Notes: a model not told the origin generated them from the letters alone. A stretch of DNA of 64,000 nucleotides from Acidobacteriota bacterium (GCA_963664705.1 OY761556.1:1984001-2048000), one strand, 5' to 3'. Positions 27,807-31,023 are shown, numbered from the stretch's first letter. Numbers and translations are program-made.

Positions 27807-27835
27807 TTGACAAGGTTTCGGCTCCCACATAAGAT
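27807..27835 (+). promoter_or_regulatory. sigma70 promoter of tRNA-Leu
   Basis: TTGACA-17 nt-TAAGAT ending 15 nt before the tRNA. Confidence 0.7.
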
Positions 27836-27849
27836 AGCTGTTCCAGTCA

Positions 27850-27933
27850 GCCGAAGTGGCGGAATTGGCAGACGCGCTAGGTTCAGGGTCTAGTGGGCTT
27901 AAGCTCGTGGGGGTTCGAGTCCCCCCTTCGGCA
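27850..27933 (+). tRNA. tRNA-Leu (anticodon CAG); CCA not encoded
   Basis: Acceptor stem GCCGAAG/CTTCGGC+A; D-loop GGAATTGGCAGAC; anticodon arm CTAGG-TTCAGGG-TCTAG; long variable arm; T-loop GGTTCGAGTCC. Confidence 0.96.
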
Positions 27934-28342
27934 CTCTCCTTTCCTTAGACAACCCATAAATATTCCATGCTGCCAATCCAATTCTAACGTCGGCGGCTCG
28001 TCCGATGCCGGGCAGATTTCTGCAAGAGGAGCCCTGCGGAGCCTGCTCTTTTTCGGCCACACTGAAGCATGGCTTTCAGGCCTCCTTTTTATAAAAAAAG
28101 GCCCAGGAGGCCGCGCGCCGGCCGGGGCCATTACGGCAGTCGCATCCACGGAAAGAAACCGATGCAAATAAAAAGATTGCGGATTTTTTGCGGGTTTGGG
28201 CCCTGGTTGCACCCGGTCCTTGAGTGAAGCGGCATTTCATAAACGGACTTGAAATTCTTATTTTTTATCCCCCCAGGCCCTTAGTTCGTGGTATATTGCG
28301 CAGCTTGGAATTCGCAACCCTTAGCAGCTGAGGAGATGATTA

Positions 28343-29947
28343 ATGGCTAAAAAGACTCCGCTCGATAGACGGACCCTGACCGGTGCCCCCATCAATCCAA
28401 TACCTCTCGAGGTGCCTTACAAGACCCTTTCGCTTTGCCCCGATTGCACGGCAAAGCTGGACGCCCAGGTGGTTGAAAAGGACGGCAAGATCATCATGGA
28501 GAAAACCTGTCCCGAGCATGGTTTCTTCAAGGAAGTTCTTCTGTCAGACGCCGAGTATTACCATCGCATGATGGCCTGGAACCGCGATGTGGGGTGCGGA
28601 GTTTCCAACCCTGCCGTCCCGGACGCCAAATCCTGTCCGGATGACTGCGGAATGTGCAACCTGCATGTGAGCCATACAGTCCTGGCCAATGTGGATTTGA
28701 CCAATCGCTGCAACCTGGCTTGCCCGATCTGCTTCGCCAATGCCAACGTCCAGGATTACATTTACGAACCGCCCTATGAACAGATTGTTCAGATGCTGCA
28801 AACCCTCCGGGATTCCCGACCCGTCGCTGGACGCGTTGTTCAGTTTGCCGGCGGCGAACCCACACTGCATCCGGACTGGTTCAGGATTCTGAAGGCGGCG
28901 GGGGATATGGGATTCTCTCACGTGCAATGCGCCACCAACGGCCTCAAATTCGCGGAAGATCCTTCTTTTGCCGAGAAATCCAGGGAAGCCGGACTGCATA
29001 CGCTCTACCTGCAGTTCGATGGAGTGGATCCGGCTCTGTACAATACGATCCGGGGCAGGAAAGATCTTTTGGACGTCAAAATGAAGGCTATTGAAAACGT
29101 CCGCAAGGCGGGACTTAAGATTGTCTACGTCCCGACCATCGTTGGCGGCCTCAACGATGATCAGGTTCCCAAGATCGTTCAATTCGCGCTGGACACCATT
29201 GATGTATGTTCCGGTATCAGCTTCCAGCCGGTTGCCATCACGGGCCGAATTGATGATGCGGAACGCGAGAAAATGCGCTTCACCCTTTCTGACTTGGCAA
29301 ACCGCGTCAATGAACTGGGATATACCACCAAGGAAGACTGGTTCCCGTTGTCCTGCACAACGCCGATCACCGAGCTCATCCAGGCACTGAGGAACGAGCC
29401 CAATGTCATGGTTTCGTGCCATCCGCTCTGCGGCATCGGAACCTATTTCTTCGTGGATCAGAACCGGAAGCCGACGCCTGTTACGCGTTTCCTGAACATC
29501 AAGGGATTGTTTGACGACATCCAGAAGCAGGCGGAAAAACTGGCAAACAAAACCACGTTTAAGAGCCTGTATAACAACCTCAGCAAATTCAGCCTTTTCA
29601 GCAGCGCCAATAAGCATTTCGATGCCAGCAAGGCACCCGAGGGTCTGACTCTGGCCAAGCTGGGCCAGACGATCGAAGGACTGCTCGACAAAAAAGCAGG
29701 ACGCGGATCCAACGACGGCACCTATACCTACAAGACGCTTATGGTCGCCGGCATGCACTTCATGGATTCATACAATTATGAAGTGGAACGCGTAAAGCGC
29801 TGCGTCATCAACTACTCCACGCCCGACGGCCGTCTCTACCCGTTCTGCACATACAATTCCGGCCCCGTATTCCGCGAGAAGATTGAAAGACAATTCTCCG
29901 TCTCAAAGGAAGAGTATCGGCAGAAGAAGCTGATAAACGTGGAATAG
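28343..29947 (+). CDS. tes: Radical SAM protein of the tetraether synthase (Tes / GDGT-MAS / MJ0619) family
   Basis: SLCPDC...CPEHG, CPDDCGMCNLH, NRCNLACPICFANA, QFAGGEPT, YLQFDG, CHPLCG and GMHFMDSYNYEVERVKRCVINYSTPDGRLYPFCTYN. Confidence 0.82.
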   Translation: MAKKTPLDRRTLTGAPINPIPLEVPYKTLSLCPDCTAKLDAQVVEKDGKIIMEKTCPEHGFFKEVLLSDAEYYHRMMAWNRDVGCGVSNPAVPDAKSCPDDCGMCNLHVSHTVLANVDLTNRCNLACPICFANANVQDYIYEPPYEQIVQMLQTLRDSRPVAGRVVQFAGGEPTLHPDWFRILKAAGDMGFSHVQCATNGLKFAEDPSFAEKSREAGLHTLYLQFDGVDPALYNTIRGRKDLLDVKMKAIENVRKAGLKIVYVPTIVGGLNDDQVPKIVQFALDTIDVCSGISFQPVAITGRIDDAEREKMRFTLSDLANRVNELGYTTKEDWFPLSCTTPITELIQALRNEPNVMVSCHPLCGIGTYFFVDQNRKPTPVTRFLNIKGLFDDIQKQAEKLANKTTFKSLYNNLSKFSLFSSANKHFDASKAPEGLTLAKLGQTIEGLLDKKAGRGSNDGTYTYKTLMVAGMHFMDSYNYEVERVKRCVINYSTPDGRLYPFCTYNSGPVFREKIERQFSVSKEEYRQKKLINVE

Positions 29948-29982
29948 ACGGCCTAAAACGGCTCCAGCGGCCTTAAAAAACG

Positions 29983-30026
29983 AAAAGGGGATCGGTGATC
30001 CAATCGGACGCCGATCCCCTTTTTTT
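29983..30026. terminator. Bidirectional intrinsic terminator between tes and the S2P protease gene
   Basis: AAAAGGGGATCGG...CCGATCCCCTTTTTTT between convergent genes. Confidence 0.85.
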
Positions 30027-30042
30027 GTTATCTGCCGGCCGG

Positions 30043-31023
30043 TTAAGTAATCGTTATCGGAACCGGAGTAAAAGATAGCAGCAGAATCAACAGTGCTATG
30101 AATCCAAGCAGAAGTCTTCCCGGCCCCAGTTTCTCATCTTCCGCGAGAGTCTGAGGGTGAAAGAAGCGCATGCGGGCACCGAGAACCAGAATCAGGGTGG
30201 CAAAGAAAAGCAACGAATAGGATGGAGGCCACTGGACAAAACTGAGGAGCACCAACATCGCGATGACCGCAATGGACAGCTTTTTCTGCGCAGTACGGCC
30301 AAAGATAGCGTAAGCAATGTGCCCGCCATCAAGCTGCCAGATAGGGAGAAGATTCAGGCTTGTTGCCAGTAGGCCCACCCAGGCCGCCATTGCCATAGGA
30401 TGCGCCAGCATGTCCTGCCTGGCCGGATCATATCCAAGGAGCAGCATGCCAAGCAGCCGGAAAATCAGCGGTTCGCCGAAACTCAGATGCCCCGGGAGGA
30501 TTCTGCCTTTGGGCACCAGGTGAGACAAGTGAATACCCAGCAGCAGGGTCGGCAGGACGAAAATGAATCCGGCCAGTGGGCCGGAAACCCCGATATCGAA
30601 TAGTACCTTTCTATTGCGGAACGGCGATTTTATTTTGATGAAAGCGCCAAACGTGCCCGCCAGCGAAATCGGGATCGGAATGAAATAGGGCGGAGTACAA
30701 CGCATTCCATAGTGCCGGCAGGTTAGAAAATGTCCAAGTTCATGCGCCAGCAGGATTCCAACCAATGGAATGGAAAAGGGAAGCCCTAACAGAATGACTC
30801 TCGGGTTTCGGATAAAGGCAAAAAATGCAGTAACAAAATCCGAATTAACCAGCGCACATAGCCCGGCAAATGAAGTACTTCCCAGAGTCAGGATCAGAAG
30901 TATAGCGGATAGAGCCCATTCTCGCCGGCTTGGCCCGGGCTCATGAGGATACTCGATAGGGTAAACCAGCCCCGCACTCCAGGACGAATGCGCCGGCGGG
31001 AACTCCGGAAGATCACTGCTCAC
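30043..31023 (-). CDS. Site-2 protease (M50 family) intramembrane metalloprotease
   Basis: LAHELGH, GVSGPLAG and NLLPIWQLDGGH. Confidence 0.92.
   Translation of the reverse strand: MSSDLPEFPPAHSSWSAGLVYPIEYPHEPGPSRREWALSAILLILTLGSTSFAGLCALVNSDFVTAFFAFIRNPRVILLGLPFSIPLVGILLAHELGHFLTCRHYGMRCTPPYFIPIPISLAGTFGAFIKIKSPFRNRKVLFDIGVSGPLAGFIFVLPTLLLGIHLSHLVPKGRILPGHLSFGEPLIFRLLGMLLLGYDPARQDMLAHPMAMAAWVGLLATSLNLLPIWQLDGGHIAYAIFGRTAQKKLSIAVIAMLVLLSFVQWPPSYSLLFFATLILVLGARMRFFHPQTLAEDEKLGPGRLLLGFIALLILLLSFTPVPITIT

Follow-up and report, generated by a model that had tools for sequence, protein, structure and literature searches.

We analysed a stretch of 64,000 nucleotides from the genome of an Acidobacteriota bacterium (GCA_963664705.1, OY761556.1:1984001-2048000; hereafter the window) and describe one of its genes, tes, whose product is, as judged from its sequence, a genuine and intact member of the Tes family of radical S-adenosylmethionine (SAM) proteins. 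By analogy with the archaeal enzymes, the window protein probably joins two bacterial phospholipid chains of fatty-acid origin by their tail ends. Acidobacterial Tes homologues and their proposed role in the synthesis of brGDGTs (branched glycerol dialkyl glycerol tetraethers) have been in print since 2022, and the gene described here is one more candidate.

Identity and metal sites of the Tes protein

A first-pass annotation of the window, made from the sequence alone, had proposed a radical SAM open reading frame of 534 aa with the layout of Tes, and every motif that it quoted was located. The protein scores 569.8 bits on NF045702, the curated NCBIfam equivalog model of Tes (cut-off 450). 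Among 14 control genomes this model exceeds its cut-off in three only, those of M. jannaschii, S. acidocaldarius and M. acetivorans. A search of the PDB returned nine matches, with GDGT-MAS of Methanocaldococcus jannaschii (7TOL) as the sole close one (E 1.6e-130 over residues 24-529) and MoaA as the next at 9e-11, and the Pfam radical SAM domain PF04055 was found at E 2e-25. An alignment-based AlphaFold model of the protein has a mean predicted local distance difference test (pLDDT) score of 90.2 and a predicted template modelling score of 0.91; it was used instead of a single-sequence prediction, which was poor (pLDDT 40.7). Against seven close relatives the ratio of nonsynonymous to synonymous divergence (dN/dS) lies between 0.02 and 0.07, at a dS close to saturation, and tes is under strong purifying selection.

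The reference protein of the family is MJ0619 of M. jannaschii (PDB 7TOL, 7TOM; PMC9433317), and Maeo_0574 and MA_1486 are further Tes proteins that have been expressed (PMC8941075). The window protein resembles MJ0619 over its full length and carries all four metal sites (Table 1). Residue equivalence was read by eye from the alignment to 7TOL, in which the chain number minus 20 gives the MJ0619 number, an offset that recovers the published rubredoxin ligands of MJ0619. On this mapping the deoxyadenosine-binding residues Phe106, Arg210, Gln268 and Arg275 are kept as F131, R237, Q295 and R302, whereas Ser271, Cys438 and Cys456 are replaced by Ala, Gly and Val.

Conservation was followed in an alignment built from 136 matches in the fetched loci. 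After removal of 24 of them (13 duplicates and 11 partial sequences), 112 rows remained: 98 of Tes type, 13 long paralogues and one TrsS. The rubredoxin-like site has the complete pattern CX2CX20CX2H and is invariant in a 65-row alignment, the context of C56/H59 excepted. The C-terminal block described by the first-pass annotation is present, with CHPLCG at residues 359-364, GMHFMD at 470-475, RCVINY at 486-491 and PFCTYN at 500-505. C363, M471, C487 and C502 are invariant in all 98 Tes-type rows and Y491 in 97 of them; because of this invariance we infer that C363, C487 and C502 are the ligands of the C-terminal cluster. C359, the first cysteine of CHPLC, varies among homologues (C, S, A, T or L) and is therefore unlikely to be a ligand. 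The same annotation had matched two residues to Met439 and Tyr459 of MJ0619 and called them mechanistically important. The match stands, with M471 and Y491 aligning to both, but the importance does not: the MJ0619 variants M439A, Y459F and Y459L remain robustly active (Lloyd 2022, PMC9433317). The two residues are therefore family markers and not proof of function.

Table 1. Positions of tes, its metal sites and the adjoining features in the window
Feature	Position	Strand	Basis or remark
tes	28343..29947	+	Tes/GDGT-MAS-family radical SAM protein, 534 aa, ATG start
Rubredoxin-like Fe site C32, C35, C56, H59	28436..28519	+	equivalent to MJ0619 C9, C12, C33, H36; PF23545
N-terminal auxiliary [4Fe-4S] ligands C98, C102, C105, H108	28634..28666	+	equivalent to MJ0619 C73, C77, C80 and a conserved His
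Radical SAM CxxxCxxC: C123, C127, C130	28709..28732	+	motif, Pfam and alignment
C-terminal auxiliary [4Fe-4S] region	29429..29848	+	C363, C487, C502 (putative ligands), M471, Y491
Ribosome-binding site GAGGAG	28330..28335	+	sequence, 7 nt upstream of ATG
Putative extended -10 element TGGTATATT	28289..28297	+	spotted by eye; not reported by the promoter scan
Intrinsic terminator hairpin with U-run	29979..30029	+	intergenic, tes/M50 peptidase gene
tRNA-Leu(CAG)	27850..27934	+	upstream neighbour, ends 408 nt before tes; context only
M50 peptidase gene, convergent	30043..31023	-	Pfam PF02163; context only

Proposed reaction and partner enzymes

In the proposed reaction two phospholipids would be bound, and a first 5'-deoxyadenosyl radical would take a terminal hydrogen from one tail. 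The substrate radical would be held at the C-terminal [4Fe-4S] cluster, a second 5'-deoxyadenosyl radical would take a terminal hydrogen from the other tail, and the radical so formed would attack the held one to give the C-C bond. By homology with MJ0619, each bond would require two SAM cleavages, and the rubredoxin site and the N-terminal cluster would relay electrons. The product would be a tetraester of the iso-diabolic type, or of the brGDGT type if an unlinked PlsA/Ger-type reductase turns the esters into ethers. That the substrate consists of iso-branched acyl or alkyl chains is our inference, as are the identities of partner reductase and product. Crystals of MJ0619 contain two bacterial phosphatidic acids, which occupy its pockets (PMC9433317), and iso-branched tails share their chain end with phytanyl tails (Zeng 2022, PMC8941075). 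Mss of Thermoanaerobacter ethanolicus and Thermotoga maritima, a radical SAM enzyme only remotely related to Tes, couples fatty-acid tails and shows that bacterial acyl chains can be joined (PMC13159169).

Zeng 2022 (PMC8941075) reported 456 bacterial Tes homologues, the best of them from Acidobacteria, and proposed a role in brGDGT synthesis. Acid_5929, the homologue of Ca. Solibacter usitatus, and those of Ca. Koribacter versatilis were put forward for brGDGT and iso-diabolic lipids (PMC8941075, PMC10087280). S. usitatus, chosen for its Tes homologue, makes abundant brGDGTs, and a pathway of PlsAR followed by Tes was proposed for it (Chen 2022; Halamka 2023, PMC10087280). The host of the window gene resembles S. 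usitatus in having a short Tes of the same bacterial clade (judged by a stand-in protein, see below), a long paralogue and a split PlsAR-like pair. It differs in that its Tes lies in a sub-clade separate from the S. usitatus and K. versatilis homologues, nested among family f37 sequences, and in being an uncultured organism.

The host genome (G000) is a single contig of 6.9 Mb, 98% complete, with a contamination estimate of 6.18%. A search for geranylgeranylglyceryl phosphate (GGGP) synthase of the PcrB family gave no match in it and matches in 7 of 14 control genomes; phytanyl substrates are therefore unlikely, unlike those of MJ0619, and the substrate in this bacterial host is likely a bacterial phospholipid. 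The search of the remaining genome for Ger, as recommended by the first-pass annotation, located a split pair of 549 and 1101 aa, about 1.55 Mb from tes and predicted from its sequence to be a PlsA/Ger-type reductase. The 1101-aa frame (G000 453879-457184) has two PF01869 domains and one PF09989 (DUF2229) domain, as in the brGDGT pathway proposed for S. usitatus, and the sizes and domain positions of the pair are like those of the PlsAR homologues of S. usitatus, to the extent that the jumbled text of Halamka Fig. S13 is legible. A DUF2229 match occurs in all 29 other genomes of the genus. The host also has FabH over the cut-off, a fused 2-oxoacid dehydrogenase E1, FabZ, KAS II and PlsC-type acyltransferases; the FabH and E1 matches do not tell branched-chain specificity. 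An NCBIfam scan of about 40 of the 79 radical SAM frames of G000, run without reference sequences, gave no model named Mss, Grs or Gms.

Several other lipid loci were observed in the host. The cluster L184:4596-16118 (G000 1284595-1296120) holds fabH, an acyl-CoA dehydrogenase gene and a gene for a 2805-aa PfaA-like type I polyketide synthase in a row. The surroundings of the fabH and KAS II matches of G000 showed no classical plsX-fabH-fabD-fabG-acpP-fabF operon, so the fatty acids of the membrane may come from this cluster. On the minus strand, L112:11208-17766 (G000 about 4.189-4.196 Mb) encodes a 4Fe-4S protein, a 488-aa radical SAM protein and a squalene-cyclase-like protein, together with a DUF116-polyprenyl synthase fusion and a protein of prenyltransferase fold. 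The Atlas look-alikes of its radical SAM protein are mostly archaeal, and a close orthologue is present in one of 50 genomes of the family; a likeness to Grs is possible. The adenosyl-hopene transferase HpnH scores over its cut-off (L216, G000 3908512-3909516), which suggests hopanoid synthesis in G000.

Relatives of the host link Tes with ether formation. In all ten loci examined from three sister genera (L123-L132, e.g. L126:1901-7999 on the plus strand; one copy frameshifted), tes lies directly upstream, on the same strand, of a Ger/PlsA pair of about 1030 and 430 aa. A Gemmatimonadota locus (L075:4250-11034) shows this order as well, interrupted by one gene, tes-HEAT-gerA-gerB. Across 301 Acidobacteriota genomes, PF09989 was found in 27 of 40 Tes carriers vs 36 of 261 others. 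The Ger subtype of about 1030 aa (at least 53% identity, full length) was present in 22 genomes from nine families, 20 of them with Tes, and also, at 50% identity, in two Terriglobia assemblies of the Solibacter clade. A role in membrane-spanning lipids is reasonable and gains support from the co-occurring ether-forming reductase genes. A CDP-alcohol phosphatidyltransferase gene precedes tes in three other families (L190:6208-8439, L192:5489-7843, L196:6261-8578); this transferase, near kdsB-pyrG-kdsA-like genes, is most like archaetidylinositol/phosphatidylinositol phosphate synthase, below the cut-offs.

Several points weigh against tail coupling by the window enzyme and a brGDGT-type product. 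Bacterial Tes activity was unconfirmed as of a 2025 paper. The archaeal MA_1114, more than 30% identical to active Tes, is reported to give no GDGT and only trace macrocyclic archaeol, and a stringent BLAST search is reported to have found Tes in only 3 of 14 Acidobacteria that produce iso-diabolic acid. Synthesis of iso-branched fatty acids by the host is only putative. Tes scores over the cut-off in 21 of the 29 other genomes of the genus, with two fragments and six misses, and four of the six missing genomes are at least 95% complete. The DUF2229 match is absent in 13 of the 40 Tes carriers, 12 of them from one family. The 1030-aa Ger subtype was not found in G000, where the best match has 25% identity. 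The co-occurrence counts themselves are suggestive and are not a test, because the genomes are related and not independent and because both enzymes are oxygen-sensitive, so that a shared anaerobic lifestyle may contribute.

Some of these observations would fit the same coupling chemistry with an ester-linked end product, that is (iso-)diabolic-acid tetraesters and no brGDGT, which is possible but not what we expect. The Tes-linked Ger subtype is lacking in this host; K. versatilis has Tes homologues, no Ger is listed for it, and it makes iso-diabolic acid and no ethers; second-hand it is reported to make tetraesters only. A 2026 paper, citing Chen 2025, states that brGDGTs coincide with the combination of Tes and Ger, and tetraesters with Tes on its own. 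Against an ester-only product, G000 encodes the split pair that resembles the PlsAR homologues of S. usitatus in that same jumbled figure text, and the DUF2229 match is general in the genus.

We consider, as a rather doubtful extension, that the Acidobacteriota hold a dedicated brGDGT module, consisting of Tes and the Ger/PlsA pair of about 1030 and 430 aa, co-inherited in nine families and arranged as an operon in the sister genera. The genus of the host would then have taken tes from another lineage without its partner, would pair it with another reductase and would make a distinct ester/ether membrane-spanning lipid. The 1030-aa subtype, at the identity level used above, is absent from 25 of the 29 other genomes of the genus.

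Paralogues, distribution and descent

The host genome has four Tes-family genes: the window tes, a long paralogue of 644 aa and two TrsS-type genes at separate loci beside AMP-ligase genes. The long paralogue (773185-775119) is 33% identical to the window protein and scores 308 bits on NF045702. It belongs to a long type (Acid_2410 type) of 600-760 aa and about 300-345 bits, in which the N-terminal cluster ligands are absent from all 13 aligned rows and the C-terminal Cys and Met are kept; the window protein, with 534 aa and all ligands present, is not of this type. Tes-family matches of any score occur in 118 of 121 genomes of the class and matches over the cut-off in 33, and among the matches listed most others are frames of 600-760 aa. 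The long type seems to be present in almost every genome of the class sample, and synthesis of iso-diabolic acid is a candidate role for it. In G000 its gene lies directly upstream of a second lpxD (L104:7186-10246, G000 773185-776245). At the Terriglobia-type loci L052:5045-9635 and L199:1256-8489 a long paralogue and a short Tes are adjacent or one gene apart. One of the TrsS-type genes (L106:6781-8091, G000 2243780-2245093) has one in-frame TGA, as in several relatives, and likely encodes a selenoprotein.

The near-universality of the long type, its retained C-terminal Cys and Met, the patchy presence of the window tes within its genus and its shifts between neighbourhoods would agree with routine coupling by the long paralogue and an accessory window enzyme, whether weak, condition-specific or closing rings within one lipid, as MA_1114 appears to do. 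We find this unlikely: the N-terminal cluster ligands are missing from the long type, which also scores low, whereas the window type is nearest to active archaeal Tes, is strongly conserved and is the type found in the tes-ger operons.

Tes over the cut-off was found in 40 of the 301 sampled Acidobacteriota genomes, in 13 families; genome G013 enters the denominators for phylum, class and genus solely as a Tes-negative row. Of 8000 scored candidate proteins, 4865 match at E <= 1e-20, and some already carry the NCBI name tetraether lipid synthase Tes. The closest named records are from uncultured Acidobacteriota (83-92% identity). The host family is likely UBA6911 (group 18), a lineage described from freshwater sediments, digesters and soils.

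Alignment and trees, which the first-pass annotation had named as the check on Tes-clade membership, place the window protein in a bacterial Tes clade composed mostly of Acidobacteriota. A mixture-model tree of 36 rows, with Bathyarchaeia as the root, unites all 28 bacterial rows in one clade (99/97), next to four Tes rows of Thermoplasmatota and methanogens. In a quick tree of 63 rows rooted on one TrsS, built with long-branch warnings, the bacterial clade lies inside archaeal Tes with Bathyarchaeia outside; a branching point inside the archaeal section of the tree is the criterion of Garcia et al. Archaeal sampling was limited, and MJ0619, MA_1486, Saci_0703 and the S. usitatus protein were left out; a Ca. 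Solibacter sp. homologue, 55% identical to the window protein over 517 columns, served as the stand-in for S. usitatus Tes.

Within the bacterial clade, full support places the window protein inside a set of family f37 sequences and outside its own class. The tes genes of the window and of the sister genera stand apart in the tree, at 52-55% identity. Vertical inheritance within the family was rejected: the forced grouping costs 150 log-likelihood units (approximately unbiased test, p 7e-34, a value that is descriptive only, as the group to be tested was defined once the tree was known). Horizontal acquisition of tes by the genus appears to be the simplest reading of the sequences, its direction being taken from the nesting only.

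Three groups of homologues deserve mention. One from a Chlamydiota-titled assembly (L028:7953-9554) has Phe at the position of Tyr459, and one from a Clostridia-titled assembly (L048:1091-2797) nests with Koribacteraceae; misbinning or transfer is possible in both cases. Family f39 (e.g. L193, L194) forms a divergent Tes sub-clade (455-512 bits) present in 13 of 20 genomes of the family. Twelve of its Tes-bearing genomes have no DUF2229 match and are candidate ester-only producers, and one tes copy follows a B12-binding radical-SAM-like gene.

A non-lipid radical SAM function is very improbable: several close homologues are named 7,8-dihydro-6-hydroxymethylpterin dimethyltransferase in JGI, and TrsS proteins of the tungsten/selenium system share the N-terminal two thirds of the window protein (rubredoxin site, N-terminal cluster and radical SAM core), but Lloyd 2022 (PMC9433317) showed the pterin annotation of MJ0619 to be wrong, the window protein scores 326.8 bits on the TrsS model NF045646 and stays under its cut-off of 490, the TrsS-type genes of G000 are found elsewhere, and lipid-gene neighbours of tes recur in relatives. 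An archaeal contaminant, suggested by the contamination estimate, or an archaeal-type isoprenoid lipid pathway in the bacterium is hardly credible at all, given the single contig with bacterial flanks, syntenic orthologues of 90-92% identity in three other Acidobacteriota assemblies, nesting of the protein in the bacterial clade and the failure to find GGGP synthase in G000.

Gene neighbourhood and significance

The AGG core of the ribosome-binding site is invariant in all 13 aligned upstream regions, and the extended -10 element TGGTATATT is found in four of them, those of the window and its three syntenic relatives. The terminator hairpin starts 32 nt past the tes stop (-31.8 kcal/mol, z -6.44, none of 200 shuffles equally stable). 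Terminator-like matches on both strands make it likely bidirectional, and a hairpin of this strength facing a convergent gene implies that the tes transcript ends there. This agrees with the first-pass description of tes as monocistronic behind tRNA-Leu with its own terminator. The tRNA-Leu gene has its own promoter-like site, TTGACA-17-TAAGAT at 27807-27835; the hairpin downstream of it has no significance (z -0.76), another at 28060-28120 is weak (z -2.1), and transcription of tes by read-through from the tRNA gene is possible.

Pfam agrees with the earlier assignment of lpxD, lptE, lptFG, tol-pal, psd, pssA and ino1 in the window. The suggestion that ino1 and psd-pssA supply headgroups did not hold up: psd and ino1 lie 6.9 kb and 12.4 kb downstream of tes, and the window neighbours recur in only 3 of 77 related loci, as does the M50 peptidase gene. 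Of 19 loci from close relatives, several of which extend only a short way upstream, 2 have a tRNA-Leu gene before tes. With the neighbours kept only in three very close relatives, a functional link of tes to tRNA-Leu, psd/pssA or ino1 was rejected, and tes behaves as a stand-alone unit that moves between neighbourhoods. Antisense and alternative-frame open reading frames that cluster across loci (clusters 1, 2 and 4) were set aside as shadows of the conserved gene.

Literature searches returned no in vitro or expression test of bacterial Tes, which is weak evidence of absence, as subscription geochemistry journals were mostly outside them. No link between UBA6911 and brGDGTs came up among 10 of 13 papers listed, the excerpts returned contained no description of a tes-ger operon, and supplements may already list the lineage or the clusters.

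The brGDGTs are widely used proxies of past temperature and pH, yet their tail-joining enzyme in Acidobacteria is still a candidate, and little is known about the organisms that make them in anoxic settings. The window gene by itself settles neither question. More useful is that Tes goes tightly together with one Ger subtype and that the sister genera have a compact three-gene operon; G000, without the Tes-linked subtype, offers a natural contrast for whether Tes alone gives tetraesters. If the reading of a dedicated module is true, brGDGT-type proxies would have an unrecognised source in uncultured Acidobacteria, likely of group 18, from anoxic sediments and digesters, and tes-gerA-gerB would be a ready minimal set for reconstitution of the pathway.

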